Position numbers and translations under genes: made by a program
Notes under the pieces: model-generated
What the model was told of the DNA's origin: nothing
Seen by the model: the letters and a program-made list of their open reading frames with translations, nothing else
The model's database searches: none
Origin: Mayamaea pseudoterrestris
Lineage: Eukaryota
Length of the DNA stretch: 64,000 nt
Direction of reading: 5' to 3'
Assembly: GCA_027923505.1 (NCBI GenBank)
Contig: BROI01000026.1
Location: forward strand, 248,001-312,000
Shown here: positions 1 to 27,963 of the stretch, piece after piece
Position numbering within the stretch: position 1 is the first letter of the stretch
Layout: the number at the start of each line of letters is the position of its first letter

Positions 1-1
1 T

Positions 2-853: not shown

Positions 854-1097
854 CTTGTGTCGTGTAGAACAAACAGAGCGCCAATCAAGAGTCTATATCG
901 TTCATCTTTCGTGATAATTTGACGAGAGCAAACGCGATGAGCCACTTTGAGTACCGGTACATCCTCGCACCGGTATTCGTTGGATACTGCTTCGCGCTTC
1001 GCAGATTTCGACCATGGCAGAACCGCAGAGATTTGGGGCAGCGGAGCAACTCATGTCATGGATTGCTTTTGCAGTTTGTGATTGAGACACTCGAAAA

Positions 1098-3619: not shown

Positions 3620-3768
3620 GGGACTTCTAGACGGTTCCATGCTTTGCAAGTAAAATTGAAGGTGGATGTTGCCGGCTGTTGGGACAAGACCAATTTGGTC
3701 GAGTAGTTTGCAACGACAGAGAGTTGGCGTAATATACAAAGGTTCATTTCATTATATACAAGTAATTT

Positions 3769-4959: not shown

Positions 4960-5103
4960 AGTATACGTGCTTGATTGACATTTAGAATCGCTTTTCTTTT
5001 TTTTTTATGTTTGGCGTCGCTACCCGAGAGTGTGGAAATGCCTCGGATGTCGTCATGAGTATCCGGCTTAGAGCGGATGCATTGAGGAGCCCGCCCTAGG
5101 GAC

Positions 5104-5501: not shown

Positions 5502-5541
5502 GGCTGGAGTCTTTTAAGAACCGGTTTGAATTATTGCGGTA

Positions 5542-8500
5542 GCTAGTGATGAATGCATTGCAATTTTGACATGACATCATGAAACAATGCCTGTTAACTG
5601 CCAGCTATAAATATACACCCCTCTGGCTGCTGGAGTGGGTTATGGCAGCCAGATACTGTGGACAAGCCTGGGGACACGAAATTCTGGCAGTCCTTGTTGA
5701 AGAACTTGGAGACTACACGGACTAGTGATGAATGCATTGCACCTTTGACATCATGACACAATGCCTGTCAACTGCCAGCTATCAATTTACACCTTACTGG
5801 CAGTTCGAGTGGGTTATGGCAGCCAGCTACTGTGGACAAGCCTGGGGACATGAAATTCTGGTAGTTCCTGTCACAGAACTTGGAGACTTCATGGGCTAGT
5901 GATGAATGCATTGCACCTTTGACATTATAACACAATGCCTGTCAACTGCCAGCTATCAATTTACCCCTCTCTGGTGGTTCGAGTGGGATATGGCCGCCAG
6001 CTACTGTGGACAAGCCTTGGGTTAAAAAATTCTGGCAGTCCCTGTTGCAGAACTTGTAGACTACATGGGCTAGTGATGAATGCATTGCATTTTTGACATC
6101 ATGAAACAATGCCTGTCAACTGCCAGCTATCAATTTATACCTCTCTGGCTGCTGGAGTGGGTTACGCCAGCCAGCTACTGTGGACAAGCCTGGGGACACA
6201 AAATTCTGGTAGTCCCTGTGGCAGAACTTGTAGACTACATGGGCTAGTGATGAATGCATTGCACTTTTGACATCATGACACAATGCCTGTCAACTGCCAG
6301 CTATCAATTGATACCTCTCTGGCTGCTGGAACGGGTTATGGCAGCCAGCTACTGTGGACAAGCCTGGGGACACGAAATTCTGGTAGTCCCTGTCGCAGAA
6401 CTTGGAGACTACATGGGCTAGTGATGAATGCATTGCACTTTTGACATCATGAAACAATGCCTATCAACTGCCAGCTATCAATTTATACCTCTCTGGCTGC
6501 TGGAGTGGGTTACGGCAGCCAGCTACTGTGGACAAGCCTGGGGACATGAAATTCTGGCAGTCCCTGTCGCAGAACTTGGAGACTACATGGGCTAGTGATG
6601 AATGCATTTCAATTTTGACATCATGAAACGATGCCTGTCAACTGCCAGCTATCAATTGATGCCTCTCTGGCTGCTGGAGTGGGTTACGGCAGCCAGCTAC
6701 TGTGGACAAGCCTGGGGACACGAAATTTTTATAGTCCCTGTCGAAGAACTTGGAGGCTACATGGGCTAGTGATGAATGCATTGCACTTTTGACATCATGA
6801 AACAATGCCTGTCAACTGCCAGCTATCAATTGATACCTCTCTGGCTGTTGGAGTGGGTTATGGGAGCCAGTTACTGTGGACAAGCCTGGGGACACAAAAT
6901 TCTGGCAGTCCCTGTCGCAGAACTTGGAGACTACATGGGCTAGTGATGAATGCATTGCACTTTTGACATCATGAAACAATGCCTGTCAACTGCCAGCTAT
7001 TTATTTATACCTCTCTGGCTGCTGGAGTGGGTTACGGCAGCCAGCTACTGTGGACAAGCCTGGGGACACAAAATTCTGGCAGTCCCTGTCGCAGAACTTG
7101 GAGACTACATGGGCTAGTGATGAATGCATTTTAATTTTGACATCATGAAACAATGCCTATCAACTGCCAGCTATCAATTGATACCTCTCTGGCTGCTGGA
7201 GTGGGTTATGGCAGCCAGCTACTGTGGACAAGCCTGGGGACACGAAATTCTGGTAGTCCCTGTCGCAGAACTTGGAGGCTACATGGGCTAGTGATGAATG
7301 CATTGCACTTTTGACATCATGACACAATGCCTGTTAACTGCCAGCTATCAATTGATACCTCTCTGGCTGCTGGAATGGGTTATGGCAGCCAGCTACTGTG
7401 GACAAGCCTGAGGACACGAAATTCTGGTAGTCCCTGTCGCAGAACTTGGAGACTACATGGGCTAGTGATGAATGCATTGCACTTTTGACATCATGAAACA
7501 ATGCCTATCAACTGCCAGCTATCATTTGATACCTCTCTGGCTGCTGGAGTGGGTTACGGCAGCCAGCTACTGTGGACAAGCCTGGGGACACAAAATTCTG
7601 GCAGTCCCTGTCGCAGAACTTGGAGACTACATGGGCTAGTGATGAATGCATTTCATGAATGAAATGCCATTGCCAGCTATCAATTGATGCCTCTCAGACA
7701 ATGCCTGTCGCAGAACTTGGAGACTACATGGGCTAGTGATGAATGCATTGCACTTTTGACATCATGATACAATGCCTGTCAACTGCCAGCTATCAATTTA
7801 TACCTCTCTGGCTGCTGGAGTGGGTTACGGCAGCCAGCTACTGTGGACAAGCCTGGGGACACGAAATTCTGGTAGTCCCTGTCACAGAACTTGGAGACTA
7901 CAACATGGGCTAGTGATGAATGCATTGCACTTTTGACATCATGAAACAATGCCTGTCAACTGCCAGCTATCAATTGATACCTCTCTGGCTGCTGGAACGG
8001 GTTATGGCAGCCAGCTACTGTGGACAAGCCTGGGGACACGAAATTCTGGCAGTCCCTGTCGCAGAACTTGGAGACTACATGGGCTAGTGATGAATGCATT
8101 GCACTTTTGACATCATGAAACAATGCCTATCAACTGCCAGCTATCATTTTTACCTCTCTGGCTGCTGGGGTGGGTTATGGCAGCCAGCTACTGTGGACAA
8201 GCCTGGGGACACGAAATTCTGGCAGTCCTTGTCGCAGTACTTGGAGACTACATGGACTAGTGATGAATGCATTGCACTTTTGGCATCATGAAACGATGCC
8301 TGTCAATTGCCAGCTATCAATTGATGCCTCTCTGGCTGCTGGAGTGGGTTACGGCAGCCAGCTACTGTGGACAAGCCTGGGGACACGAAATTTTTATAGT
8401 CCCTGTCGAAGAACTTGGAGGCTACATGGGCTAGTGATGAATGCATTGCACTTTTGACATCATGAAACAATGCCTGTCAACTGCCAGCTATCAATTGATA

Positions 8501-11500
8501 CCTCTCTGGCTGCTGGAGTGGGTTATGGCAGCCAGCTACTGTGGACAAGCCTGGGGACACAAAATTCTGGCAGTCCCTGTCGCAGAACTTGGAGACTACA
8601 TGGGCTAGTGATGAATGCATTGCACTTTTGACATCATGAAACAATGCCTGTCAACTGCCAGCTAACAATTTGTACCTCTCTGGCTGCTGGAGTGGGTTAT
8701 GGCAGCCAGCTACTGTGGACAAGCCTAGAGACACAAAATTCTGGCAGTCCCTGTCGCAGAACTTGGAGGCTACATGGGCTAGTGATGAATGCATTGCACC
8801 TTTGACATCATGAAACAATGCCTGTCAACTGCCAGCTATCAATTTATACCTCTCTGGCTGTTGGAGTGGGTTATGGCAGCCAGCTACTGTGGACAAGCTT
8901 GGGGACATGAAACTCTGGCAGTCCCTGTCCCAGAACTTGTAGACTACATGGGCTAGTGATGAATGCATTGCATTTTTGACATCATGAAACAATGCCTGTC
9001 AACTGCCAGCTATCAATTGATACCTCTCTGGCTGCTGGAGTGGGTTACGGCAGCCAGCTACTGTGGACAAGCCTGGGGACACGAAATTCTGGTAGTCCCT
9101 GTCACAGAACTTGGAGACTACAACATGGGCTAGTGATGAATGCATTGCACTTTTGACATCATGACACAATGCCTGTCAACTGCCAGCTATCAATTGATAC
9201 CTCTCTGGCTGCTGGAACGGGTTATGGCAGCCAGCTACTGTGGACAAGCCTGGGGACACGAAATTCTGGCAGTCCCTGTCGCAGAACTTGGAGACTACAT
9301 GGGCTAGTGATGAATGCATTGCACTTTTGACATCATGAAACAATGCCTGTCAACTGCCAGCTATCAATTTATACCTCTCTGGCTGCTGGAGTGGGTTATG
9401 GCAGCCAGCTACTGTGGACAAGCCTGGGGACACGAAATTCTGGCAGTCCCTGTCGCAGAACTTGTAGACTACATGGGCTAGTGATGAATGCATTTCAATT
9501 TTGACATCATGAAACGATGCCTGTCAACTGCCAGCTATCAATTGATGCCTCTCTGGCTGCTGGAGTGGGTTACGGCAGCCAGCTACTGTGGACAAGCCCG
9601 GGGACAGTAAATTTTTATAGTCCCTGTCACAGAACTTGGAGGCTACATGGGCTAGTGATGAATGCATTGCACTTTTGACATCATGAAACAATGCCTGTCA
9701 ACTGCCAGCTATCAATTGATACCTCTCTGGCTGTTGGAGTGGGTTATGGGAGCCAGTTACTGTGGACAAGCCTGGGGACACGAAATTCTGGCAGTCCTTG
9801 TCGCAGAACTTGGAGACTACATGGGCTAGTGATGAATGCATTGCACTTTTGACATCATGAAACAATGCCTGTCAACTGCCAGCTATTTATTTATACCTCT
9901 CTGGCTGCTGGAGTGGGTTACGGCAGCCAGCTACTGTGGACAAGCCTGGGGACACAAAATTCTGGCAGTCCCTGTCGCAGAACTTGGAGGCTACATGGGC
10001 TAGTGATGAATGCATTGCACTTTTGACATCATGAAACAATGCCTGTCAACTGCCAGCTATTTATTTATACCTCTCTGGCTGTTGGAGTGGGTTATGGCAG
10101 CCAGCTACTGTGGACAAGCCTGGGGACATGAAATTCTGGCAGTCCCTGTCACAGAACTTGTAGACTACATGGGCTAGTGATAAATGCATTGCATTTTTGA
10201 CATCATGAAACAATGCCTGTCAACTGCCAGCTATCAATTGATACCTATCTGGCTGCTGGAGTGGGTTATGGCAGCCAGCTACTGTGGACAAGCCTGGGGA
10301 CACGAAATTCTGGTAGTCCCTGTCGCAGAACTTGGAGGCTACATGAGCTAGTGATGAATGCATTGCACTTTTGACATCATGAAACAATGCCTGTCAACTG
10401 CCAGCTATTTATTTATACCTCTCTGGCTGCTGGAGTGGGTTATGGCAGCCAGATACTGTGGACAAGCATGGGGACACAAAATTTTGGCAGTCCCTGTTGC
10501 AGAACTTGGAGACTACATGGGCTAGTGATGAATGCATTTCAATTTTGACATCATGAAACAATGCCTGTCAACTGCCAGCTATCAATTGATACCTCTCTGG
10601 CTGTTAGAGTGGGTTATGGGAGCCAGTTACTGTGGACAATCCTGGGGACAAGCATGGGGACACAAAATTCTGGGAGTCCCTGTCACAGAACTTGGAGACT
10701 ACATGGGCTAGTGATGAATGCATTGCACCTTTGACATCATGAAACAATGCAAGTTAACTGCCAGCTATCAATTGATACCTCTCTGGCTGCTGGAGTGGGT
10801 TACGGCAGCCAGCTACTGTGGACAAGCTTGGGGACATGAAATTCTGGCAGTCCCTGTTACAGAACTTGAAGACTACATGGGCTGGTGATGAATGCATTGC
10901 ATTTTTGACATCATGAAACAATGCCTGTCAACTGCCAGCTATCAATTGATACCTCTCTGGCTGCTGGAGTGGGTTATCGCAGCCAGCTACTGTGGACAAG
11001 CCTGGGGACACGAAATTGTGGCGGTCCTACAGGCAGAACTTGGAGACTAAATGGGCTAGTGATGTATGCATTGCACTTTTAATATCATGAAACAATGCCT
11101 GTCAACTGCCAGCTATCAATTTATACCTCTCTGGCCATTGGAACGGGTTATGGCAGCCAGCTTCTGTGGACAAGCCTGGGGACAGGAAATTCTGGGAGTC
11201 CCTGTCGCAGAACTTGAAGACTACATGGGCTGGTGATGAATGGATTGCACCTTTGACATCATGAAACAATGCATGGCAACTGCCAGCTATCAATTAATGC
11301 CTCTCTGGCTGTTGGAGTGGGTTATGGCAGCCAGCTACTGTGGACAAGCTTGGGGACATGAAATTCTGGCAGTCCCTGTCGCAGAACTTGTAGACTACAT
11401 GGGCTAGTGATGATTGCATTGCACTTTAACATCATGAATCAATGCCTGTCAATTGCCAGCTATCAATTGATACCTCTCTAGCTGCTGGAACGGGTTATGG

Positions 11501-14500
11501 CAGGCAGCTACTGTGGACAAGCCTGGGGACACAAAATTCTGGCAGTCCCTGTCACAGAACTTGTAGACTACATGGGCTAGTGATGAATGCATTGCACTTT
11601 TGACATCATGAAACAATGCCTATCAACTGCCAGCTATCAATTTATACCTCTCTGGCTGCTGGAGTGGGTTACGGCAGCCAGCTACTGTGGACAAGCCTGG
11701 GGACACGAATTCTGGCAGTCCCTGTCGCAGAACTTGGAGACTACATGGGCTAGTGATGAATGCATTTCAATTTTGACATCATGAAACGATGCCTGTCAAC
11801 TGCCAGCTATCAATTGATGCCTCTCTGGCTGCTGGAGTGGGTTACGGCAGCCAGCTACTGTGGACAAGCCTGGGGACACGAAATTTTTATAGTCCCTGTC
11901 GCAGAACTTGGAGGCTACATGGGCTAGTGATGAATGCATTGCATTTTTGACATCATGAAACAATGCCTGTCAACTGCCAGCTATCAATTGATACCTCTCT
12001 GGCTGCTGGAGTGGGTTATGGCAGCCAGCTACTGTGGACAAGCCTGGGGACACGAAATTCTGGCAGTCCCTGTCACAGAACTTGGAGACTACATGGGCTG
12101 GTGATGAATGCATTGAACTTTTGACATCATGAAACAATGCTTGTCAACTGCCAGCTATCAATTTATACCTCTCTGGCTGCTGGAGTGGGTTATGGCAGCC
12201 AGATACTGTGGACAAGCATGTGGACACGAAATTTTGGCAGTCCCTGTTGCAGAACTTGGAGACTACATGGGCTAGTGATGAATGCATTTCAATTTTGACA
12301 TCATGAAACAATGCCTGTCAACTGCCAGCTATCAATTGATACCTCTCTGGCTGCTGGAGTGGATTATTATGGCAGCCAGCTACTTTGGACAAGCCTGGGG
12401 ACACAAAATTTTTATTGTCCCTGTTGCAGAACTTGGAGGCTACATGGGCTAGTGATGAATGCATTGCACTTTTGACATCATGAAACAATGCCTGTCAACT
12501 GCCAGCTATCAATTGATACTTCTCTGGCTGTTGGAGTGGGTTATGGCAGCCAGTTACTGTGGACAAGCCTGGGGACAAGCCTGGGGACACGAAATTCTGG
12601 CAGTCCCTGTCGCAGAACTTGGAGACTACATGGGCTAGTGATGAATGCATTGCACTTTTGACATCATGACACAATGCCTGTCAACTGCCAGCTATCAATT
12701 GATACCTCTCTGGCTGCTGGGGTGGGGTACAGGCCACCTGCTATTGTGGACAAGCCTGGGGACACGAAATTCTGGCAGTCCCTGTGGCAGAACTTGGAGA
12801 CTACATGAGCTAGTGATGAATGCATAGCACTTTTGACATCATGAAACAATGCCTGTCAACTGCCAGCAATCAATTTACACCTCGCTGGCTGCTGGAGTGG
12901 GTTACGGCAGCCAGCTACTGTGGACAAGCCTGGGGACATGATATTCAGGCAGTCCCTGTGGCAGAACTTGGAGACTACATGAGCTAGTGATGAATGCATA
13001 GCACTTTTGACATCATGAAACAATGCCTGTCAACTGCCAGCAATCAATTTACACCTCGCTGGCTGCTGGAGTGGGTTATGGCAGCCAGCTACTGTGGACA
13101 AGCCTGGGGACATGAAATTCTGGCAGTCCCTGTGGCAGAACTTGGAGACTACATGAGCTAGTGATGAATGCATTGCACTTTTGACATCATGAAACAATGC
13201 CTGTCAACTGCCAGCAATCAATGTATACCTCTCTGGCAGCTGGAGTGGGTTCCGGCAGCCTGCTATTGTGGACAAGCCTGGGGACACGAAATTCTGGCAG
13301 TCCCTGTGGCAGAACTTGGAGACTACATGAGCTAGTGATGAATGCATTGCACTTTTGACATCATGAAACAATGCCTGTCAACTGCCAGCAATCAATGTAT
13401 ACCTCTCTGGCTGCTGGAGTGGGTTACGGCAGCCTGCTATGTTGGACAAGCCTGGGGACACGAAATTCTGGCAGTCCCTGTGGCAGAACTTGGAGACTAC
13501 ATGAGCTAGTGATGAATGCATAGCACTTTTGACATCATGAAACAATGCCTGTCAACTGCCAGCAATCAATGTATACCTCTCTGGCAGCTGGAGTGGGTTC
13601 CGGCAGCCTGCTATTGTGGACAAGCCTGGGGACACGAAATTCTGGCAGTCCCTGTGGCAGAACTTGGAGACTACATGAGCTAGTGATGAATGCATAGCAC
13701 TCTTGACATCATGAAACAATGCCTGTCAACTGCCAGCAATCAATGTATACCTCTCTGGCAGCTGGAGTGGTTATGGCAGCCAGCTACTGTGGAAAAGCCC
13801 GGGGACACAAAATTCTGGCAGTCCCTGTCGCAGAACTTGTTGACTACATGGGCTAGTGATGAATGCATTGCACTTTTGACATCATGAAACAATGCCTGTC
13901 AACTGCCAGCTATCAATTGATGCCTCTCTGGCTGCTGGAGTGGGTTACAGCAGCCAGCTACCGTGGACAAGCTTGGGGACATGAAATTCTGGCAGTCCCT
14001 GTCGCAGAACTTGGAGACTACATGGGCTAGTGATGAATGCATTGCACTTTTGACATCATGACACAATGCCTGTCAACTGCCAGCTATCAATTGATACCTC
14101 TCTGGCTGCTGGAACGGGTTATGGCAGCCAGCTCCTGTGGACAAGCCTTGGGACACGAAATTCTGGCAGTCCCTGTCACAGAACTTGGAGACTACATGGG
14201 CTAGTGATGAATGCATTGCACTTTTGACATCATGAAACAATGCCTGTCAACTGCCAGCTATCAATTTATACCTCTCTGGCTGCTGGAGTGGGTTATGGCA
14301 GCCAGATACTGTGGACAAGCATGTGGACACGAAATTTTGGCAGTCCCTGTTGCAGAACTTGGAGACTACATGGGCTAGTGATGAATGCATTTCAATTTTG
14401 ACATCATGAAACAATGCCTGTCAACTGCCAGCTATCAATTGATACCTCTCTGGCTGCTGGAGTGGGTTATTATGGCAGCCAGCTACTTTGGACAAGCCTG

Positions 14501-16530
14501 GGGACACAAAATTTTTATTGTCCCTGTTGCAGAACTTGGAGGCTACATGGGCTAGTGATGAATGCATTGCACTTTTGACATCATGACACAATGCCTGTCA
14601 ACTGCCAGCTATCAATTGATACCTCTCTGGATGTTGGAGTGAGTTATGGCAGCCAGTTACTGTGGACAAGACTGGGGACAAGCCTGGGGTCACGAAATTC
14701 TGGCAGTCCCTGTCACAGAACTTGGAGACTACATGGGCTAGTGATGAATGCATTGCACTTTTGACATCGTGAAACAATGCCTGTCAACTGCCAGCTATCA
14801 ATTTATACCTCTCTGGCTGCTGGGGTGGGTTATGGCAGCCAGCTACTGTAGACAAGCCTGGGGACACGAAATTCTGGCAGTCCTTGTTGCAGTACTTGGA
14901 GACTACATGGGCTAGTGATGAATGCATTGCACTTTTGACATCATGAAACAATGCATGTCAACTGCCAGCTATCAATTTACACCTCTCTGGCTGTTGGAGT
15001 GGGTAAAGGCAGCCAGCTACTGTGGACAAGCATGGGGACACAAAATTGTGGCGGTCCTACAGGCAGAAATTGGAGATTACATAGGCTAGTGATGAATGCA
15101 TTGCACTTTTGACATCATGAAACAATGCCTATCAACTGCCAGCTATCAATTTATACCTCTCTGGCTGCTGGAGTGGGTTACGGCAGCCAGCTACTGTGGA
15201 CAAGCCTGGGGACACGAAATTCTGGCAGTCCCTGTCGCAGAACTTGGAGACTACATGGGCTAGTGATGAATGCATTTCAATTTTGACATCATGAAACGAT
15301 GCCTGTCAACTGCCAGCTATCAATTGATGCCTCTCTGGCTGCTGGAGTGGGTTACGGCAGCCAGCTACTGTGGACAAGCCTGGGGACACGAAATTTTTAT
15401 AGTCCCTGTCGCAGAACTTGGAGGCTACATGGGCTAGTGATGAATGCATTGCACTTTTGACATCATGAAACAATGCCTGTCAACTGCCAGCTATCAATTT
15501 ATACCTCTCTGGCTGTTGGAGTGGGTTACGGCAGCCAGCTACTGTGGACAAGCCTGGGGACACGAAATTCTGGCAGTCCCTGTCGCAGAACTTGTAGACT
15601 ACATGGGCTAGTGATGAATGCATTGCACTTTTGACATCATGACACAATGCCTGTCAACTGCCAGTTATCAATTGATACCTCTCTGGCTGTTGGAGTGGGT
15701 TATGGGAGCCAGTTACTGTGGACAAGCCTGGGGACACAAAATTGTGGTAGTCCCTGTCGCAGAACTTGGAGGCTACATGGGCTAGTGATGAATGCATTGC
15801 ACCTTTGACATCATGAAACAATGCCTATCAACTGCCAGCTATCAATTTATACCTCTCTGGCTGCTGGAGTGGATTACGGCAGCCAGCTACTGTGGACAAG
15901 CCTGGGGACACGAAATTCTGGCAGTCCCTGTCGCAGAACTTGGAGACTACATGGGCTAGTGATGAATGCATTTCGATTTTGACATCATGAAATGATGCCT
16001 GTCAATTGCCAGCTATCAATTGATGCCTTTGGCTGTAGGGCACCTACTCGAAGCTTGGGGACACGAAATTTTTATAGTCCCTGTCAAAGAACTTGGAGGC
16101 TACATGGGCTAGTGATGAATGCATTGCACTTTTGACATCATGAAATGCCTGTCAACTGCCAGCTATCAATTGATACCTCTCTGGCTGTTGGAGTGGGTTA
16201 TGGGAGCCAGTTACTGTGGACAAGCCTGGGGACACAAAATTCTGGCAGTCCCTGTCGCAGAACTTGGAGACTACATGGGCTAGTGATGAATGCATTGCAC
16301 TTTTGACATCATGAAACAATGCCTGTCAACTGCCAGCTATCAATTGATACCTCTCTGGCTGCTGGAACGGGTTATGGCAGCCAGCTACTGTGGACAAGCC
16401 TGGGGTCACAAAATTCTGGCAGTCCCTGTCGCAGAACTTGGAGGCTACATGGGCTAGTGATGATTGCATTGCACCTTTGACATCATGAAACAATGCCTAT
16501 CAACTGCCAGCTATTTTTTTATACCTCTCT
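5542..16530. repeat. Satellite A: tandem array of 174-bp monomers, about 63 copies
   Basis: The monomer-start motif (G/A)CTAGTGATGAATGC recurs at 5721, 5895, 6069, 6243, 6417 (period 174). By-eye consensus: GCTAGTGATGAATGCATTGCACTTTTGACATCATGAAACAATGCCTGTCAACTGCCAGCTATCAATTGATACCTCTCTGGCTGCTGGAGTGGGTTATGGCAGCCAGCTACTGTGGACAAGCCTGGGGACACGAAATTCTGGCAGTCCCTGTCGCAGAACTTGGAGACTACATGG. The array is cut mid-monomer by the LTR at 16531. Confidence 0.98.
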
Positions 16531-16859
16531 TGACACAATATTATTGAGTTGAGTTGACCTGCGTCTCATGACAAGACGGTTAGCTACCTGTGTTTTGTAT
16601 GCATTTAATCCTGTGCAGGGTTGAGTCACACTTGTGACCGAATCCTCACATACATGAGTGAAATCGCTGACGATCGAGGCGTGAACCTCGACCGTGAACC
16701 CAGTGAGAACGAGAAAGAAGCGCACGAGTAGAGTAGCGAGTAACATGCACTATTCTAGCAATTGAGTTTGTTTGTTTGCTTTACGCTGGACGAAGAGGTT
16801 GATCGCTCCTAGTCCATTGTAGTCGCTGGAATAAAGGTTCGTCTGATATTATCGTGTCA
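16531..16859 (+). repeat. LTR1 (329 bp)
   Basis: Begins TGACAC, ends GTGTCA (6-bp terminal inverted repeat); AATAAA near the 3' end; repeated at 21447 and 27635. Confidence 0.96.
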
Positions 16860-16873
16860 GATTAACAGTCTTG
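16860..16873 (+). promoter_or_regulatory. Putative primer-binding site complementary to the tRNA-Asn(GUU) anticodon arm (also at 21776-21789)
   Basis: GATTAACAGTCTTG abuts the LTR. Its reverse complement CAAGA-CTGTTAA-TC reads as a 5-nt stem strand, a canonical 7-nt anticodon loop with GTT, and 2 nt that pair back with the stem. Confidence 0.7.
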
Positions 16874-17078
16874 CTAGCTTGTCTTGACCTGAGAGAGCTG
16901 TGCGAAAGAGAGAGAGTGAAAGAATCGAGAAATTGAGAGAGAAAGAGCAGATTCCTTGCGGCGTCGTCAATCCGAATACTTGGCACGAGCGCGTAGAACA
17001 GGATCGTATAAGGCTCGACCGCATTGAGAGCGGTTGTTGTGTGAGAAAGGACTTGCGGAAAGCGAGGTATTCACTATC

Positions 17079-19730
17079 ATGGTTGCGATTACTGCGGAAG
17101 CCTTGCAGCTTCTCTGCACGAACGTTTTCGGACGAGACATCCAAGAAGCGTTCTTGTTTTGGAATGTAACCACCACGACCCAGATGTTGAGATTGACCAA
17201 GGAGCAACTTGAAGCCCCCTACTGGGTCGACAGAGCCGCCATCCCAGCTGGCGTTGAGCAAGAAGAAGGCGCGCAACTCGACGATGCGCCGCCGGACGAC
17301 GAGCCGGCCGAAGAACCGGCCGAAGAACAAGAAGCCGCCGTCCCAGAACGATACGAAGCGACATTAGCACCAGTCTACGTGAACCTTATCCTCGATGCAT
17401 GTGAATGGTTCAACATGCACGACGGACCCCCGAACACCAGGAAGTGGGCGTTGCTTGATTTAGGCAAGCTCGAGCGATTCCAAGAGAAACTCGCCGAACA
17501 AGAAGTCGGTCGAAAGCGTGAAGAAGGACGCTACGTCCTCGAGGCCAAGAAGAAGCAAGCCGAGCTACTTGCCAAGCAACTCGAAAATGAGACCATCAAG
17601 GCTGAGAAGGCCGAAAAGGAAGAAGATGCCAAGGGTCGTTTCTCGAACCTCAAGACGAAACGAGACTACAAGGACTACAAAACGTTCCAACATCCCCACG
17701 CGTGGTTGAGTTGGAGCGCGTCTACCAAGGCAATCGCCAAGCTCCATGGCTGTTCTAACGTGCTCGACAGCAAGTACGTACCAGTCACGGAAGAAGAGAA
17801 ATTAGAGTTCGAGAATCAGCAAGTCTTCATGTACACTGCGTTTCGCAATTGTCTCGAAGTCCCTGGACACCAGTCGCTCCTGATGAAGTACGGCGACAAG
17901 TCTGACGCTCAAAGCGTCTATCGCGAACTCGCGACCAAGTTTGGTTCCGGCGAGTTAGCTACCATCCAAGCGAACGAACTGCAGGCCAAGCTTGCGACGA
18001 TTCGCCTAGATTCGACCTGGACGAAAGGACACTACAAGTTCCTAAACTACATCGAACAGCTCATGAAGAATCTCGAAGAGTTCCGTCCTGGAGTGACGGA
18101 TGACAAGAAGAAGTACTACTGGCTCCGAGCTGCAGTGGAGGGCGACGAAGAATTCGGCCCCACGTGCACGACGTTCGACCAGCACCTGTTATTTGAACGA
18201 CGACGCATCATTAGTGCAAACGGTGACCCAGACGCCGTCGTGACGGAAGATTATGACTATCTTTTCGACATGTTGTCGCAGCAGGCTTTGCGCGTCGACA
18301 ACAAGAACGCCAAGTTGAACAAGGGCAAGAAGAACGCCGACCGCCAAGCGAACAACGCGAACACTTCCGGGCAAGGACGTGGTAATGGACGCGGTTCCGG
18401 TCGCGGCGGAGGACGCGGCGGCCAAGGCGGACGCGGCGGTGGACGAGACGGTGGACGTGGCACCCAATCGGGGCGCGGTTCCGGAGGACGAGGCTCTTCC
18501 GCGCCACTACCAGCAGCCGGTACGCAAGCGCATCGGGAACGATTCCCTGGCGATTATCTGAACTTTGAACAGTTGTTACAGAACCCCTGGTCGTACATGT
18601 GTCGACTCGGCCGACTTAACGAGGACGAATACGCTCAGCTCATGGCTCGACGCGAAGCCGTCCCAAGACCCGCCACCACAAGACGCGCGAACAACGGTAA
18701 CCGCGCGAATAACCAGCAGTCACAAGCGGCTGCCTCGGTGCCTGGTACAATCTTGTATCAGAATGACGCTGTCTCGATCGCCCCGACGACAGCCACTCAA
18801 GGTGCACCGGATGACATGATTAGATCTTTCCTTGCGAACGCCGCGTCGTCTCGCACTCAAGCTGCGAATAACACCCAGCAAGAGTTTATGGGAAGCGACG
18901 GCCGTCGGTACCGCGCAATGGTATTGGTGCGCTACACTGTGAATCGAGCTCGCAGCAACGAGACCCGCCAAGGATCGCTGATTGACGGCGGTGCGAACGG
19001 TGGACTCGCTGGAAGCGATATGAGAATCTTGAGTACTACCAACCACACGTGTAACGTGACAGGTTTGAGCGACCACACGGTTCGCGACCTCCAAGTCGGA
19101 ACTGGCGTCGCATTGATTGAGACTCGGACTGGACCCATTATCGGTCAGTTCAACCAGTATGCTTTGTACGACGGTGCTGAATCCATTCATGCTCCATCGC
19201 AGCTTCGTTCGTTCGGCCATCTGATCGACGACGTCGCTCGCTCCCAGAATGGAGCACAAGCCATTGTCACCAGTTGTGGCAAGACCATCCCCTTGGCGAT
19301 CCGTGACGGCTTGCCTCGTATGGATATCGTCCGCCGACGGGACGCAGAGTTGGAAATGTATCCGACGGTCATTTTCTCTCGCGGACACCCTTTGGGATCC
19401 GCGCTGGATAATGAATGGAGCGAAGAAGAACTTGAGTTTAATCGTCCGACGACGGTGGAAGAAACCCGCGGTTTCGTCGACGCCCGCATGGAGACTGGCG
19501 ACGCCACCTACCGGAACAACATGAATTCAGTGGAACGTGTGGTGCAGTATGTCGATCCGCAATCAGGCTGTCCGACCGCCAAGCCAATGCACACCCGCAT
19601 AATGCCACAAGAACCTGACTCCAGCCCGACCCTACCTTGGCCACGCCACTTGAACGAGTCAAGCGCACCATTAAGAATACGACACAGCTTTTCCGTGCAT
19701 CGGCACACACCCCATTTCGCCACACTTTAA
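17079..19730 (+). CDS. Copia gag-protease ORF, copy 1 (frameshifts out before/within integrase)
   Basis: Track ORF 17034-19730, first ATG at 17079. Gag-like helical region, RGG-rich segment, aspartic protease motif LIDGGANGGLAG. Confidence 0.9.
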   Translation: MVAITAEALQLLCTNVFGRDIQEAFLFWNVTTTTQMLRLTKEQLEAPYWVDRAAIPAGVEQEEGAQLDDAPPDDEPAEEPAEEQEAAVPERYEATLAPVYVNLILDACEWFNMHDGPPNTRKWALLDLGKLERFQEKLAEQEVGRKREEGRYVLEAKKKQAELLAKQLENETIKAEKAEKEEDAKGRFSNLKTKRDYKDYKTFQHPHAWLSWSASTKAIAKLHGCSNVLDSKYVPVTEEEKLEFENQQVFMYTAFRNCLEVPGHQSLLMKYGDKSDAQSVYRELATKFGSGELATIQANELQAKLATIRLDSTWTKGHYKFLNYIEQLMKNLEEFRPGVTDDKKKYYWLRAAVEGDEEFGPTCTTFDQHLLFERRRIISANGDPDAVVTEDYDYLFDMLSQQALRVDNKNAKLNKGKKNADRQANNANTSGQGRGNGRGSGRGGGRGGQGGRGGGRDGGRGTQSGRGSGGRGSSAPLPAAGTQAHRERFPGDYLNFEQLLQNPWSYMCRLGRLNEDEYAQLMARREAVPRPATTRRANNGNRANNQQSQAAASVPGTILYQNDAVSIAPTTATQGAPDDMIRSFLANAASSRTQAANNTQQEFMGSDGRRYRAMVLVRYTVNRARSNETRQGSLIDGGANGGLAGSDMRILSTTNHTCNVTGLSDHTVRDLQVGTGVALIETRTGPIIGQFNQYALYDGAESIHAPSQLRSFGHLIDDVARSQNGAQAIVTSCGKTIPLAIRDGLPRMDIVRRRDAELEMYPTVIFSRGHPLGSALDNEWSEEELEFNRPTTVEETRGFVDARMETGDATYRNNMNSVERVVQYVDPQSGCPTAKPMHTRIMPQEPDSSPTLPWPRHLNESSAPLRIRHSFSVHRHTPHFATL

Positions 19731-21446
19731 GTCGCGATTCCCGCCGCCAATGTGGTTCGTTTCCATGACGATCCGGCGACAGATACCTGGTTTTCAAGGA
19801 AGCCGCCTTTAACGACGGAATCCCGGCCATGGCGGATGCAAGATGATGCAACTGTTCGTCGGCAAGAAGAGTCTGCTGACGAGGATACCCACTGAGAACC
19901 CGAGTGACATGCCCATGGCGCTCGAAGACTTCATTCGAGACATTGGTGCTCCCGACTTGCTCATTAGCGATAACTCGCGAGTGCAGCTCGGGAAGCAAGT
20001 TGAAACCTTGTTGCGATTCTACGCGATTCGTGACCAACAGAGCGAGCCGGATACCAGAACCAGAACCCTGCCGAGCGCGTGCATCCAGAAGTCAAGTCAT
20101 CAGTCCAGAACATCATGAACCGTGGGCGGGCGCGCCGGCTGGAGCCTGGCTCCTATGCGCGCTGTACGTAATCGCCTTATTTAACAATCTGGCAACCGAG
20201 TCCCTCAACTGGAAGACCCCTACTGAAGCCGCCTTCAACCGAGTACCCGACATTTCGCCGTTCCTGCAGTTCAAGTTCTGGGAACGAGTCCTGTACGAAG
20301 CTGGAGCCGACGAGCCGCCGACATTTCCTAACACCAAGGAAGCAGCAGGACGCTGGGTCGGCATTGCAGAGAACAAGGGTGACATCCTCACGTACCAAGT
20401 CCAATCCGATCGGACTGGAATGATTGTTGTCCGATCCAACGTTCGCCCCTTCTCCGAAGGGCGTAACCTACGCGCTGAAGCTGAAAGCGCTCCTGAACCC
20501 GAGTCCGAACGACCGCTGTTCGGACCTGTCTTCGCGCGCGCCCGCGCGCGAACGAGTCCAAGTCGAAACTGTCGACGAGTTTGGACGATGATTATGACCT
20601 AGTCGGTCCGGTGTTTGAACCGACCTTACACCGACCCCAGCGCCTGATTCTGGGGAACCGTGGATGAACGCATTCACGTTGGAAAGCGCTGCCGAGTTAG
20701 CCGGTTTGGATCCCGACGGACCCATGCCGTCCTTTACTCCGGCTGAACTGATGGGACGCACTGTCCTTCTTGACGAGGAAGACGGCTCCACGCGACGTTA
20801 CAAGGTTATCGAGCAACTGAACGATTGCGATGAAGCTAACCACAAGATTATCAAGTTCCGATTGAGTCTCGGCGACGGCGACGTCGACGAGCTTATTACC
20901 TACAACGAACTAGCCGACCTGTGCGAGCGGCAAGATTCTTTACGACTGGGGGACGATGACAACGACGACCAGTACTACAAGTTTGATTTCATTGACGGAC
21001 ATGAAGGTCCACTGACACAAGCCGACACTACGTATCGCGGCTCATCCTACAACTTGCTCATCCAATGGGCAAATGGCGAGAAGACCTGGGAGCCACTCGC
21101 ATTGATCATCAAGTCCGACCCTGTGACTGTTGCCGAGTATGGCAAGCGCAAGGGTATGCTGGAAAAGGATGGATGGAAGCGCTTGAGGCGCATGGCAGGA
21201 CGCACTAAAATGTTTAACCGCATGTGCAAGGCTGCAAAGAAGAACCGTGTCCAAGAAGCGCGTTTCAAGTTTGGCGTTCAAGTTCCAAAGCGGGCCCGCC
21301 CACCGCTGAAACACACGTGGGCGACCCGTCAAGACTGAGACGGAGCAGCTACGAAGTACGACACTTTCATCGACAAGGGCATCGGTGCCTTCATGGAAAG
21401 TGACTGGAAGCGCATCAACGCGCATCTTGTTTTCGACTGCAAGAAC
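19731..21446 (+). pseudogene. Frameshifted integrase, chromodomain-like module and start of RT, copy 1; truncated by LTR2
   Basis: Fragments in different frames: DTWF, FIRDIGAPDLLISDNS, SLNWKTP...PDISPFLQFKFWERV, GRWVGIAENKGDILTY, YNLLIQWANGEKTWEPL, KFGVQVP, HLVFDCK. Confidence 0.85.
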
Positions 21447-21775
21447 TGACACAATATTATTGAGTTGAGTTGACCTGCGTCTCATGACAAGACGGTTAGC
21501 TACCTGTGTTTTGTATGCATTTAATCCTGTGCAGGGTTGAGTCACACTTGTGACCGAATCCTCACATACATGAGTGAAATCGCTGACGATCGAGGCGTGA
21601 ACCTCGACCGTGAACCCAGTGAGAACGAGAAAGAAGCGCACGAGTAGAGTAGCGAGTAACATGCACTATTCTAGCAATTGAGTTTGTTTGTTTGCTTTAC
21701 GCTGGACGAAGAGGTTGATCGCTCCTAGTCCATTGTAGTCGCTGGAATAAAGGTTCGTCTGATATTATCGTGTCA
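21447..21775 (+). repeat. LTR2 (329 bp), internal
   Basis: Same sequence as LTR1 at offset 4916; preceded by RT sequence rather than a polypurine tract. Confidence 0.96.
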
Positions 21776-21994
21776 GATTAACAGTCTTGCTAGCTTGTCT
21801 TGACCTGAGAGAGCTGTGCGAAAGAGAGAGAGTGAAAGAATCGAGAAATTGAGAGAGAAAGAGCAGATTCCTTGCGGCGTCGTCAATCCGAATACTTGGC
21901 ACGAGCGCGTAGAACAGGATCGTATAAGGCTCGACCGCATTGAGAGCGGTTGTTGTGTGAGAAAGGACTTGCGGAAAGCGAGGTATTCACTATC

Positions 21995-24643
21995 ATGGTT
22001 GCGATTACTGCGGAAGCCTTGCAGCTTCTCTGCACGAACGTTTTCGGACGAGACATCCAAGAAGCGTTCTTGTTTTGGAATGTAACCACCACGACCCAGA
22101 TGTTGAGATTGACCAAGGAGCAACTTGAAGCCCCCTACTGGGTCGACAGAGCCGCCATCCCAGCTGGCGTTGAGCAAGAAGAAGGCGCGCAACTCGACGA
22201 TGCGCCGCCGGACGACGAGCCGGCCGAAGAACCGGCCGAAGAACAAGAAGCCGCCGTCCCAGAACGATACGAAGCGACATTAGCACCAGTCTACGTGAAC
22301 CTTATCCTCGATGCATGTGAATGGTTCAACATGCACGACGGACCCCCGAACACCAGGAAGTGGGCGTTGCTTGATTTAGGCAAGCTCGAGCGATTCCAAG
22401 AGAAACTCGCCGAACAAGAAGTCGGTCGAAAGCGTGAAGAAGGACGCTACGTCCTCGAGGCCAAGAAGAAGCAAGCCGAGCTACTTGCCAAGCAACTCGA
22501 AAATGAGACCATCAAGGCTGAGAAGGCCGAAAAGGAAGAAGATGCCAAGGGTCGTTTCTCGAACCTCAAGACGAAACGAGACTACAAGGACTACAAAACG
22601 TTCCAACATCCCCACGCGTGGTTGAGTTGGAGCGCGTCTACCAAGGCAATCGCCAAGCTCCATGGCTGTTCTAACGTGCTCGACAGCAAGTACGTACCAG
22701 TCACGGAAGAAGAGAAATTAGAGTTCGAGAATCAGCAAGTCTTCATGTACACTGCGTTTCGCAATTGTCTCGAAGTCCCTGGACACCAGTCGCTCCTGAT
22801 GAAGTACGGCGACAAGTCTGACGCTCAAAGCGTCTATCGCGAACTCGCGACCAAGTTTGGTTCCGGCGAGTTAGCTACCATCCAAGCGAACGAACTGCAG
22901 GCCAAGCTTGCGACGATTCGCCTAGATTCGACCTGGACGAAAGGACACTACAAGTTCCTAAACTACATCGAACAGCTCATGAAGAATCTCGAAGAGTTCC
23001 GTCCTGGAGTGACGGATGACAAGAAGAAGTACTACTGGCTCCGAGCTGCAGTGGAGGGCGACGAAGAATTCGGCCCCACGTGCACGACGTTCGACCAGCA
23101 CCTGTTATTTGAACGACGACGCATCATTAGTGCAAACGGTGACCCAGACGCCGTCGTGACGGAAGATTATGACTATCTTTTCGACATGTTGTCGCAGCAG
23201 GCTTTGCGCGTCGACAACAAGAACGCCAAGTTGAACAAGGGCAAGAAGAACGCCGACCGCCAAGCGAACAACGCGAACACTTCCGGGCAAGGACGTGGTA
23301 ATGGACGCGGTTCCGGTCGCGGCGGAGGACGCGGCGGCCAAGGCGGACGCGGCGGTGGACGAGACGGTGGACGTGGCACCCAATCGGGGCGCGGTTCCGG
23401 AGGACGAGGCTCTTCCGCGCCACTACCAGCAGCCGGTACGCAAGCGCATCGGGAACGATTCCCTGGCGATTATCTGAACTTTGAACAGTTGTTACAGAAC
23501 CCCTGGTCGTACATACGACTCGGCCGACTTAACGAGGACGAATACGCTCAGCTCATGGCTCGACGCGAAGCCGTCCCAAGACCCGCCACCACAAGACGCG
23601 CGAACAACGGTAACCGCGCGAATAACCAGCAGTCACAAGCGGCTGCCTCGGTGCCTGGTACAATCTTGTATCAGAATGACGCTGTCTCGATCGCCCCGAC
23701 GACAGCCACTCAAGGTGCACCGGATGACATGATTAGATCTTTCCTTGCGAACGCCGCGTCGTCTCGCACTCAAGCTGCGAATAACACCCAGCAAGAGTTT
23801 ATGGGAAGCGACGGCCGTCGGTACCGCGCAATGGTATTGGTGCGCTACACTGTGAATCGAGCTCGCAGCAACGAGACCCGCCAAGGATCGCTGATTGACG
23901 GCGGTGCGAACGGTGGACTCGCTGGAAGCGATATGAGAATCTTGAGTACTACCAACCACACGTGTAACGTGACAGGTTTGAGCGACCACACGGTTCGCGA
24001 CCTCCAAGTCGGAACTGGCGTCGCATTGATTGAGACTCGGACTGGACCCATTATCGGTCAGTTCAACCAGTATGCTTTGTACGACGGTGCTGAATCCATT
24101 CATGCTCCATCGCAGCTTCGTTCGTTCGGCCATCTGATCGACGACGTCGCTCGCTCCCAGAATGGAGCACAAGCCATTGTCACCAGTTGTGGCAAGACCA
24201 TCCCCTTGGCGATCCGTGACGGCTTGCCTCGTATGGATATCGTCCGCCGACGGGACGCAGAGTTGGAAATGTATCCGACGGTCATTTTCTCTCGCGGACA
24301 CCCTTTGGGATCCGCGCTGGATAATGAATGGAGCGAAGAAGAACTTGAGTTTAATCGTCCGACGACGGTGGAAGAAACCCGCGGTTTCGTCGACGCCCGC
24401 ATGGAGACTGGCGACGCCACCTACCGGAACAACATGAATTCAGTGGAACGTGTGGTGCAGTATGTCGATCCGCAATCAGGCTGTCCGACCGCCAAGCCAA
24501 TGCACACCCGCATAATGCCACAAGAACCTGACTCCAGCCCGACCCTACCTTGGCCACGCCACTTGAACGAGTCAAGCGCACCATTAAGAATACGACACAG
24601 CTTTTCCGTGCATCGGCACACACCCCATTTCGCCACACTTTAA
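21995..24643 (+). CDS. Copia gag-protease ORF, copy 2
   Basis: Matches copy 1 except WSYMCRL vs WSYIRL (net 3-bp indel near 23514). Confidence 0.9.
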   Translation: MVAITAEALQLLCTNVFGRDIQEAFLFWNVTTTTQMLRLTKEQLEAPYWVDRAAIPAGVEQEEGAQLDDAPPDDEPAEEPAEEQEAAVPERYEATLAPVYVNLILDACEWFNMHDGPPNTRKWALLDLGKLERFQEKLAEQEVGRKREEGRYVLEAKKKQAELLAKQLENETIKAEKAEKEEDAKGRFSNLKTKRDYKDYKTFQHPHAWLSWSASTKAIAKLHGCSNVLDSKYVPVTEEEKLEFENQQVFMYTAFRNCLEVPGHQSLLMKYGDKSDAQSVYRELATKFGSGELATIQANELQAKLATIRLDSTWTKGHYKFLNYIEQLMKNLEEFRPGVTDDKKKYYWLRAAVEGDEEFGPTCTTFDQHLLFERRRIISANGDPDAVVTEDYDYLFDMLSQQALRVDNKNAKLNKGKKNADRQANNANTSGQGRGNGRGSGRGGGRGGQGGRGGGRDGGRGTQSGRGSGGRGSSAPLPAAGTQAHRERFPGDYLNFEQLLQNPWSYIRLGRLNEDEYAQLMARREAVPRPATTRRANNGNRANNQQSQAAASVPGTILYQNDAVSIAPTTATQGAPDDMIRSFLANAASSRTQAANNTQQEFMGSDGRRYRAMVLVRYTVNRARSNETRQGSLIDGGANGGLAGSDMRILSTTNHTCNVTGLSDHTVRDLQVGTGVALIETRTGPIIGQFNQYALYDGAESIHAPSQLRSFGHLIDDVARSQNGAQAIVTSCGKTIPLAIRDGLPRMDIVRRRDAELEMYPTVIFSRGHPLGSALDNEWSEEELEFNRPTTVEETRGFVDARMETGDATYRNNMNSVERVVQYVDPQSGCPTAKPMHTRIMPQEPDSSPTLPWPRHLNESSAPLRIRHSFSVHRHTPHFATL

Positions 24644-27623
24644 GTCGCGATTCCCGCCGCCAATGTGGTTCGTTTCCATGACGATCCGGCGACAGATACC
24701 TGGTTTTCAAGGAAGCCGCCTTTAACGACGGAATCCCGGCCATGGCGGATGCAAGATGATGCAACTGTTCGTCGGCAAGAAGAGTCTGCTGACGAGGATA
24801 CCCACTGAGAACCCGAGTGACATGCCCATGGCGCTCGAAGACTTCATTCGAGACATTGGTGCTCCCGACTTGCTCATTAGCGATAACTCGCGAGTGCAGC
24901 TCGGGAAGCAAGTTGAAACCTTGTTGCGATTCTACGCGATTCGTGACCAACAGAGCGAGCCGGATACCAGAACCAGAACCCTGCCGAGCGCGTGCATCCA
25001 GAAGTCAAGTCATCAGTCCAGAACATCATGAACCGTGGGCGGGCGCGCCGGCTGGAGCCTGGCTCCTATGCGCGCTGTACGTAATCGCCTTATTTAACAA
25101 TCTGGCAACCGAGTCCCTCAACTGGAAGACCCCTACTGAAGCCGCCTTCAACCGAGTACCCGACATTTCGCCGTTCCTGCAGTTCAAGTTCTGGGAACGA
25201 GTCCTGTACGAAGCTGGAGCCGACGAGCCGCCGACATTTCCTAACACCAAGGAAGCAGCAGGACGCTGGGTCGGCATTGCAGAGAACAAGGGTGACATCC
25301 TCACGTACCAAGTCCAATCCGATCGGACTGGAATGATTGTTGTCCGATCCAACGTTCGCCCCTTCTCCGAAGGGCGTAACCTACGCGCTGAAGCTGAAAG
25401 CGCTCCTGAACCCGAGTCCGAACGACCGCTGTTCGGACCTGTCTTCGCGCGCGCCCGCGCGCGAACGAGTCCAAGTCGAAACTGTCGACGAGTTTGGACG
25501 ATGATTATGACCTAGTCGGTCCGGTGTTTGAACCGACCTTACACCGACCCCAGCGCCTGATTCTGGGGAACCGTGGATGAAGGCATTCACGTTGGAAAGC
25601 GCTGCCGAGTTAGCCGGTTTGGATCCCGACGGACCCATGCCGTCCTTTACTCCGGCTGAACTGATGGGACGCACTGTCCTTCTTGACGAGGAAGACGGCT
25701 CCACGCGACGTTACAAGGTTATCGAGCAACTGAACGATTGCGATGAAGCTAACCACAAGATTATCAAGTTCCGATTGAGTCTCGGCGACGGCGACGTCGA
25801 CGAGCTTATTACCTACAACGAACTAGCCGACCTGTGCGAGCGGCAAGATTCTTTACGACTGGGGGACGATGACAACGACGACCAGTACTACAAGTTTGAT
25901 TTCATTGACGGACATGAAGGTCCACTGACACAAGCCGACACTACGTATCGCGGCTCATCCTACAACTTGCTCATCCAATGGGCAAATGGCGAGAAGACCT
26001 GGGAGCCACTCGCATTGATCATCAAGTCCGACCCTGTGACTGTTGCCGAGTATGGCAAGCGCAAGGGTATGCTGGAAAAGGATGGATGGAAGCGCTTGAG
26101 GCGCATGGCAGGACGCACTAAAATGTTTAACCGCATGTGCAAGGCTGCAAAGAAGAACCGTGTCCAAGAAGCGCGTTTCAAGTTTGGCGTTCAAGTTCCA
26201 AAGCGGGCCCGCCCACCGCTGAAACACACGTGGGCGACCCGTCAAGACTGAGACGGAGCAGCTACGAAGTACGACACTTTCATCGACAAGGGCATCGGTG
26301 CCTTCATGGAAAGTGACTGGAAGCGCATCAACGCGCATCTTGTTTTCGACTGCAAGAACATTGACGTACGGCGATCGCCGACTGCCTTCTCGGCGATCGA
26401 ACCATAGCACTGTTAGCTGAACTGAACGACCTCAAGTTTTGGGCTGCCGATGTCGGTAACGCCTACCTCGAGGCCAAGACCAAGGAAAAGGTCTACATTG
26501 TTGCCGGTCCCGAGTTTGGACCATTGGAAGGCCATACCTTGGTCATCTACAAGGCACTTTACGGATTGCGCACTTCTGGCGCGCGTTGGCATGAGCACTT
26601 TGCCGACACACTCCGCGACATTGGATTCTACCCAAGCTACGCGGACCCTGACGTCTGGATGAAAGACTGTGGCACTCACTACGAGTACGTCGGCGTGTTC
26701 GTCGACGATCTGGGTAACATGAAAGATCCACAAGCCTTCACAGACCTCCTCAAGGACAAGTACAAGTACAAGTTGAAGAGCGTCGGTGACATCAAGTACC
26801 ACCTTCGAGCCAACTTCTATCGTGATCCCGATGGAACCCTCTGCATGGCGCAAGACCTACGTCGTTCGCGTGCTAAGAACTACGAAACCATGTTTGGCGA
26901 GAAGCCCCAGCGCAAGTCACCGCTTGACGACGGGGACCACCCCGAACTTGACCTTACCGAAGAGCTGGATGCCCGTGGCATTCAACAGTACCAGTCTCTT
27001 ATCGGTGCCCTCCAGTGGGCAGTGACCCTATGTCGACTTGACATTCATTGTGTCGTAATGACACTTGGCCGATTCCGCTGCGCCCCGCGCCGCGGTTTAC
27101 CTGGACCGAGCCAAAGCGAGTCTGCGGTTACCTAGCTGAGTACCCTGATGCGGCGATTCGTTTCCGGACGAAGATCGTCAAACACGGGGAACCTACCAAG
27201 TATGATTGGTTGCAATCGGTCTACGGCAACTCAAGCGAAGAGCTTCCGTGGAACATGCCGATCCCGAAGGGCAAGCCTGTGCAACTAACTACCTTTATGG
27301 ATGCGAACCTGTACCATGATTACACTACTGGACGTTCCGCAATGGGAGTCCTGCATTTCCTGAACCAGACGCCTGTCGAATGGTATGCTCGTGGCAGCGC
27401 GACGGATGGAAGCGCTGACAGCGCTGCAGGACACACGAAGACTGTTTAACCGCATGTGCAAGCTGCGAAAAGCAATGTTCTGTACTTTGAGCACATCTTC
27501 GGCAAGCAGAACGTCGCCGACGTTCTTACCAAGTTCTTGCCGCATGCCACGTTCCAACCCCTGATCATTCCGATTCTTTTCTGGAAGGGTGATACGGCAA
27601 ACCGATTGTTGTCACAAGCCTAG
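24644..27623 (+). pseudogene. Degenerate pol (INT, chromo-like, RT, RNase H), copy 2
   Basis: Same INT frameshifts as copy 1. RT motifs ADVGNAYLEA, KALYGL, ADPDVW, FVDDL, YQSLIGALQW. RNase H motifs FMDANLYHD and NVADVLTK...LFWKGDT, ending at TAG 27621-27623. Multiple frameshifts and internal deletions. Confidence 0.88.
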
Positions 27624-27626
27624 ATC

Positions 27627-27634
27627 AAGGGGGA
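27627..27634 (+). promoter_or_regulatory. Polypurine tract
   Basis: AAGGGGGA immediately 5' of LTR3. Confidence 0.8.
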
Positions 27635-27963
27635 TGACACAATATTATTGAGTTGAGTTGACCTGCGTCTCATGACAAGACGGTTAGCTACCTGTGTTTT
27701 GTATGCATTTAATCCTGTGCAGGGTTGAGTCACACTTGTGACCGAATCCTCACATACATGAGTGAAATCGCTGACGATCGAGGCGTGAACCTCGACCGTG
27801 AACCCAGTGAGAACGAGAAAGAAGCGCACGAGTAGAGTAGCGAGTAACATGCACTATTCTAGCAATTGAGTTTGTTTGTTTGCTTTACGCTGGACGAAGA
27901 GGTTGATCGCTCCGAGTCCATTGTAGTCGCTGGAATAAAGGTTCGTCTGATATTATCGTGTCA
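27635..27963 (+). repeat. LTR3 (329 bp)
   Basis: Copy of LTR1/2; the one difference I spotted is GCTCCGAG vs GCTCCTAG (position 27914). Confidence 0.96.

Follow-up and report, generated by a model that had tools for sequence, protein, structure and literature searches.

Hemiviruses, a group of Copia retrotransposons that includes copia and Ty5, start cDNA synthesis at the 3'-OH of tRNA nucleotide 40, and this start defines the group (PMC1181622). Drosophila copia and 1731, yeast Ty5 and Volvox Osser, all of the Copia superfamily, carry a site for an anticodon stem-loop that abuts the LTR, with synthesis starting on a 5' tRNA fragment, at about its nucleotide 40 (PMC1181622, PMC5371799). These elements use initiator tRNA-Met, and it was on copia and Ty5, primed by an initiator tRNA-Met fragment, that the original prediction for the locus described here was modelled. 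The nucleotide 40 start of that model is borne out by the literature (PMC1181622), whereas half-tRNA priming extends to tRNAs other than initiator tRNA-Met. In plants, half-tRNA sites are given for initiator tRNA-Met (Osser, Bryco and Gymco-II) and tRNA-Ile (Bianca), where they are confined to Copia lineages and characteristic of them; tRNA-Asn figures in that account only among 3'-end sites, in 2% of elements (PMC6317226). Candida elements have half-tRNA sites for tRNA-Arg(UCU) and initiator tRNA-Met (PMC4139406), and FunCo1 has an internal tRNA-Lys site (PMC5445492). Rust-fungus Copia and Helenus elements possess anticodon-loop sites for the tRNAs of Tyr, Ile and Asp and for initiator tRNA-Met, and a 3'-truncated tRNA-Asn-GTT primer has been proposed once, for the fungal Helenus (Kojima 2024, PMC10886601). 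The name CoDi stands for the groups of diatom Copia elements in Maumus et al. 2009.

The present analysis concerns a tandem Copia element within a 64,000-nucleotide stretch of DNA, the whole of which is referred to below as the window. The 14-15 bases that follow its LTRs probably represent a minus-strand primer-binding site which, in the manner of the Hemiviruses copia and Ty5, would pair with the anticodon arm of tRNA-Asn(GUU); the probability of this reading is put at roughly 0.78. The site resembles those of the Hemivirus-type elements in the features listed above, but it matches tRNA-Asn(GUU) instead of initiator tRNA-Met and the hosts differ, the likeness being drawn from the site. The Helenus and rust-fungus elements likewise have a site, assigned in silico, against the anticodon region of a non-initiator tRNA, in one case tRNA-Asn-GTT; they are fungal, mostly non-autonomous and have tRNA-like LTRs, and the comparison with them is based on their description (PMC10886601). 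Unlike Helenus, the window site marks a coding Copia clade whose nearest recorded look-alikes come from diatoms. The plant half-tRNA elements differ from the window element in tRNA species and host kingdom. FunCo1 and the Candida elements share with it a site complementary to an internal tRNA region, the FunCo1 anticodon being CTT as against GTT in the window (PMC5445492), and the host also differs.

Organization of the locus

The element forms a tandem LTR-internal-LTR-internal-LTR array at positions 16531-27963, with all of its features on the + strand. Self-BLAST delimited three 329-bp LTRs (TGACAC...GTGTCA): LTR1 (16531..16859), LTR2 (21447..21775), which is common to both tandem units, and LTR3 (27635..27963). 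LTR1 does not differ from LTR2 at any position (100% identity), and a single mismatch separates LTR3 from both (99.7%). A 4916-bp unit (16531-21446) recurs at 21447-26359 with 99.9% identity. Internal region 1 (16860..21446), itself 99.9% identical to 21776-26359, is 3'-truncated: it stops abruptly at 21446, the equivalent of 26359, where it is joined straight to LTR2, and it lacks the last 1275 bp of internal region 2, i.e., most of the reverse transcriptase (RT), the RNase H and the polypurine tract. Internal region 2, delimited by self-comparison of the window (21776-27634), ends in the polypurine tract AAGGGGGA (27627..27634), which directly abuts LTR3. The TG...CA LTR ends and the polypurine tract are thus present and a 5-bp target-site duplication is absent, the element being flanked by TCTCT on the left and AGTGG on the right. 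This absence fits recombination between copies, by which the tandem array was probably formed.

In three related loci described below (L124, L126 and L144), too, the end of pol is succeeded by an LTR, behind which a primer site or gag lies; the tandem arrangement may be common in this Copia clade, or it may be a product of assembly.

The element is located exactly at the junction between two satellite arrays, one with a 174-bp repeat on its left (5541-16530, ~11 kb) and one with a 168-bp repeat on its right (27964-28985, ~1 kb), the two repeats having no BLAST similarity to each other. The relative in L142 adjoins a satellite with a 183-bp repeat (L142:1-4015) that is related to neither of the window satellites. 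The flanking genes (window 1-5000 and 29000-64000) are long open reading frames (ORFs) that appear to be intron-poor. Among them are Ku70/80, a methyltransferase, a trypsin-like protease, a kinase with a fused B56 domain, SDE2-SPRY, EB1, a gamma-glutamyltranspeptidase and a GH31 enzyme split across two ORFs (44467-45723 and 45955-47748).

Coding content and classification

Four coding regions were recognized in internal region 2. A gag-protease ORF of 882 aa counted from its ATG (21995..24643), which contains the motif LIDGGANGG, had no Pfam match and is collinear with residues 146-782 of the full-length relative P0002. An integrase-like region in two shifted frames (24747..25440) aligned to residues 886-1098 of the same protein. 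It is followed by a Copia-type RT (26383..27096), for which the RVT_2 match spans 26365-27132 (E 1.6e-14) and is the only Pfam domain recognized in the element, and, in another frame, by the C-terminal portion of pol on the RNase H side (27078..27620), aligned to the last ~230 residues of the relatives. The RT fragment returned 14,168 library matches at E<=1e-3, the best of which is 60% identical. Eight full-length relatives are collinear with the window from gag (~22565) to the end of pol (~27620). The window copy shows at least five frame changes along the alignment to these relatives and is therefore regarded as decayed; since its pol is frameshifted it cannot supply its own proteins, and its primer site may no longer be in use.

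When searched against Pfam, the relatives likewise returned RVT_2 alone, and the rve domain had no match in the window or the relatives. In a profile built from 11 relatives, positions 792-894, which lie upstream of the RT, matched the core of retroviral integrase (5cz1, E 2e-4), and the gene order is therefore that of Copia. By these sequence features, i.e., a Copia-type RT with the integrase upstream of it, the element would be assigned to the Ty1/copia superfamily (Pseudoviridae).

The gag, protease and integrase of the whole clade (window 21995-25440; P0002-P0026) are missed by Pfam, and the clade integrase came to light only in a comparison of the family profile with solved structures (E 2e-4). 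In the window copy, gag possesses a long RGG-rich stretch in place of a recognizable zinc knuckle.

A word-indexed search returned no homologue of the gag-protease protein, and neither RT protein nor RT alignment searches found a relative among viral contigs. A language-model look-alike search placed the gag-protease protein near a cluster recorded mostly from Bacillariophyta (score 0.95), which is the single basis for a 'diatom' or CoDi label for this element; a look-alike search made with an adjacent host ORF pointed to no taxon.

The putative primer-binding site

The putative primer-binding site, GATTAACAGTCTTG(C), lies at 16860..16874, and an identical second copy at 21776..21790. It is complementary to nucleotides 27-40 of tRNA-Asn(GUU), or to nucleotides 26-40 if G26 is counted. 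As had been observed, the exact 14-mer GATTAACAGTCTTG begins at the first base after LTR1 and LTR2 with zero gap; the window contains two copies of it (16860-16873 and 21776-21789), each on the + strand. LTR3 is followed by satellite DNA, in which GATTAACAGTCTTG is absent. The claim that no TGG-type site follows the LTR also held, TGG being absent from the 30 bases 3' of the LTR. Judged from sequence, the locus carries the feature typical of Hemiviruses, namely an LTR-abutting site whose complementarity to an anticodon arm stops at about nucleotide 40, and it has none that fits the 3' end of a tRNA.

The two occurrences count as one observation because both belong to a single tandem duplication. 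In shuffled sequence, matches with up to two mismatches averaged 0.44, and two or more matches were obtained in 8 of 100 shuffles, a within-window statistic that is weak when taken alone; the significance of GATTAACAGTCTTG derives from the relatives and from real tRNA genes. There are no tRNA genes in the window. In viral contigs, CA followed by the 15-mer was found in three stretches, all of them inside phage-like coding sequence.

Correspondence to tRNA-Asn anticodon arms

The full arm predicted from the site, CAAGACTGTTAATCTTG (17 bases, with CAAGA and TCTTG strands enclosing the loop CTGTTAA), was scanned against metagenome contigs and found in at least 120 stretches. Among the 120 matches listed, ARAGORN identified 59 as tRNA-Asn(GTT) genes bearing the arm, which comprise 44 distinct sequences; of the other 61, six resemble pieces of tRNA missed by ARAGORN and the remainder are situated in coding-like sequence. 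The expectation that the complement of GATTAACAGTCTTG is the anticodon arm of a tRNA-Asn(GTT) was in this way confirmed. Most of the arm-bearing tRNA-Asn genes among the matches listed have a G just 5' of the arm, so that the complementarity of the window site can reach 15 bases (nucleotides 26-40). The arm-bearing tRNAs often sit in phage-like or bacterial tRNA clusters.

The tRNA of the host was sought in public sequencing runs, nine of which contain words of the window; none of the nine is an RNA run, and run X1 is the richest. Contigs of four runs (X1-X4) were compared with a reference, the most central of the arm-bearing tRNA-Asn genes (L067:262-359), to which the retrotransposon site matches at 15 of 15 positions. 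In X1, one 458-nt contig, from this single run, aligned to bases 294-340 of L067 with 45 of 47 positions identical. The aligned span runs from the 3' strand of the D-stem through G26, the complete anticodon arm and the variable loop up to the end of the T-arm, and lies 17-63 bases from the end of the contig. The ends of this tRNA form a perfectly pairing 7-bp acceptor stem with discriminator G and no CCA, and TTTT lies six bases downstream; by its sequence, the X1 contig tRNA has the form of a eukaryotic nuclear tRNA gene. No alignment to L067 was obtained for contigs of X2, X3 and X4, an absence that can be false.

In the worst case, the two differences in the X1 alignment would leave the host tRNA pairing with the site at 13 of 15 positions or bearing another anticodon. 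They presumably lie outside nucleotides 26-40, since a site that fits a foreign tRNA better than that of its host would be an odd coincidence, and the host tRNA-Asn is accordingly taken to be identical across all 15 positions.

Conservation among related Copia elements

Genome contigs were scanned with the RT alignment, which yielded 31 related loci (L124-L154) whose RT is 35-61% identical. Seven of these contain an LTR/internal junction, and in six of the seven the 11-base core GATTAACAGTC, or a form of it with a one-base insertion, stands right after the LTR-terminal CA, in agreement with the proposal that the motif would be conserved in relatives. The exact core is flush with the terminal CA in L126, L131, L137 (LTR pair at 1-280 and 8463-8738) and an element nested in L143; these four are the sole exact occurrences in 165,043 bp, both strands included, compared with ~0.08 expected. 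The one-base insertion lies inside the anticodon-loop complement in L124 (~5491; GATTAACaAGTC) and L142 (~4408; GATTAAtCAGTC), and could be a mutation, an assembly error or a scar of copying a modified primer; L124 retains a 4.8-kb uninterrupted pol alignment despite it. The junction region of L144 is without the core motif. This absence and the two insertions count against half-tRNA-Asn priming.

The LTR ends and leaders of the junction-bearing relatives are otherwise unrelated to one another. The invariant part of the site is the complement of tRNA nucleotides 30-40, i.e., two stem pairs and the Asn loop, and the bases that vary are those complementary to nucleotides 26-29 in the upper anticodon stem. 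The bases after the core are TTGC in the window and L124, TTGG in L131, GTAG in L126, GCAG in L137 and L143, and TCAG in L142, and such variation in the three to four bases after the core would be anticipated from an upper anticodon stem that varies among hosts.

A search for the core in the five bins that contain relatives gave 13 matches, including the four sites already found. A further four are post-LTR-like sites (L157, L163, L166 and L167), all from bin G001 and all with TTG, the site in L157 being followed by a gag related to P0002; two are bacterial-type tRNA-Asn genes with other stems (L162 and L165), and three have no recognizable context. All five non-tRNA core matches in bin G001 share TTG. 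The only tRNA-Asn genes found in the bins with relatives are the two of bacterial type (L162 and L165), and no eukaryotic tRNA-Asn was found there. On this sequence evidence, a half-tRNA-Asn site as a conserved trait of a coding Copia clade outside fungi is supported.

Several observations were made on these contigs in passing. All 31 (L124-L154) are filed under the names of bacterial or archaeal metagenome-assembled genomes (MAGs), at least seven of them in bin G001, and encode eukaryotic Copia polyproteins, indicating that the bins contain eukaryotic contamination. The nested element in L143 (5071-10005) has 561-bp LTRs that are 98.6% identical and a primer site of the same type, and interrupts the RT of another family member, in which it lies in the opposite orientation; the RT match in L143 begins at residue 34, right after the LTR. 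In L167 (674-745, complement), ARAGORN reported a tRNA-like sequence whose anticodon loop is odd; it lies ~240-300 bases into the element beginning at the L167 primer site and recalls elements carrying tRNA-derived sequences.

Proposed priming mechanism and alternative interpretations

In the proposed mechanism, the element RNA would pair with nucleotides 27-40 of the cytoplasmic tRNA-Asn(GUU), and in the window copy also with G26, thereby opening the anticodon stem; the 3' CCA end of the tRNA would take no part in the pairing. Cleavage of the tRNA on the 3' side of C40, or recruitment of an already existing 5' fragment with that end, would be required, since the end of a primer has to lie where it is paired. 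The RT would then extend from C40 straight into U5, for which reason the site would abut the LTR-terminal CA without a spacer. Reverse transcription stops at modified tRNA bases, and the 14-base length of the site may accordingly be set by a stop of the RT at a modified G26 while the primer is being copied. Positions 34 and 37 of tRNA-Asn(GUU) are normally modified.

The interpretation as half-tRNA-Asn priming, which formed the centre of the original prediction, is largely supported by the sequence comparisons. The position of the site, its match to a real tRNA arm, its presence in relatives and the lack of a self-primer speak for it, whereas cleavage of tRNA-Asn and actual priming from the fragment are steps that we infer from these features.

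The alternative that best withstands the evidence is that the site does pair with tRNA-Asn, for the purpose of, e.g., tRNA-assisted packaging, dimerization or translational control, and that priming occurs elsewhere or by another RNA. Conservation in relatives would fit any such role, and the priming reading is itself drawn from sequence; the site, however, is flush with the LTR end in those relatives that have it, which is exactly where a primer site must be, and it is accompanied by neither an alternative TGG-type site nor a self-primer. Moreover, complementarity stops at nucleotide 40, from which Hemivirus cDNA is known to start (PMC1181622), and a tRNA-binding role of another kind is on balance distinctly unlikely.

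A primer derived from some other tRNA whose arm is similar, such as a tRNA-Lys(CUU/UUU) mismatched at position 34, is suggested by the FunCo1 site ATTAAGAGTCT, which is one base from ATTAACAGTCT (PMC5445492), and the two differences of the X1 contig could fall in the anticodon. This substitution is nonetheless very unlikely, as the base opposite position 34 is C in the elements seen, namely in the window, the four exact relatives and the four further sites of bin G001. In addition, all 59 arm-bearing tRNA genes among the matches listed are Asn(GTT), though the search pattern fixed GTT.

In self-priming of the Tf1 type, which is known from Tf1/Sushi and has been predicted for some Copia lineages of plants (PMC6317226), the transcript folds its own 5' end back onto the site. 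A better fit of the site to the element's own 5' end would have spoken against tRNA priming, but the longest Watson-Crick complement between the 40 post-LTR bases and the whole LTR is 7 nt where the model needs ~11, and the same site is shared by unrelated LTRs; a self-primer was therefore rejected as extremely improbable. A chance resemblance of non-functional sequence to a tRNA loop, for which the weak within-window statistics leave room (8 of 100 shuffles with two or more matches), is scarcely credible and is contradicted by the survey of relatives, given that the 11-mer stands flush after unrelated LTRs (four matches versus ~0.08 expected) and that the core recurs in further elements of bin G001.

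Novelty and biological meaning

Full-text literature searches found no description of a diatom Copia primer site; the 14-mer GATTAACAGTCTTG and its complement were absent from the texts searched, in which 11-mers matched unrelated primers only. The main text of Maumus et al. 2009 does not mention tRNA or primer binding, and nothing useful was found in the literature on diatom tRNA fragments. The assumption that such a site had not been described for diatom elements is consistent with these searches, but the novelty is lowered by the tRNA-Asn-GTT half-primer already proposed for the fungal Helenus (PMC10886601). Half-tRNA priming is already known or proposed for initiator tRNA-Met, tRNA-Ile, tRNA-Arg, tRNA-Lys, tRNA-Tyr and tRNA-Asp; the present case is one of another tRNA and another host group, and its novelty is modest. 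No new mechanism is revealed by the half-tRNA-Asn site.

A more far-reaching proposal, namely that a diatom/stramenopile Copia clade depends on a 40-nt 5' fragment of tRNA-Asn(GUU), with gated transposition, a site length set by G26 and insertion scars all holding jointly, is considered unlikely. If it were true, stress-induced cleavage of the tRNA or the modification state of tRNA-Asn would act as a gate on transposition, the fixed 14-base site length would reflect a stop of the RT at modified G26, and the one-base insertions in L124 and L142 would have been left behind when modified primer bases were copied.

For the clade itself, the site offers a diagnostic: the fixed 11-base core after the LTR-terminal CA finds the 5' ends of elements, which is valuable because Pfam recognizes only the RT in this clade, and the variable stem bases match elements to hosts. 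Half-tRNA-Asn priming in this clade would name a specific fragment, the 5' piece of tRNA-Asn whose last nucleotide is 40, as one to look for in small-RNA data, the relevant hosts being those with stress-activated related elements. It would furthermore extend the set of half-tRNA primers in non-fungal coding Copia elements by tRNA-Asn, and it supports the view that primer switching among anticodon arms is common in the Copia superfamily.
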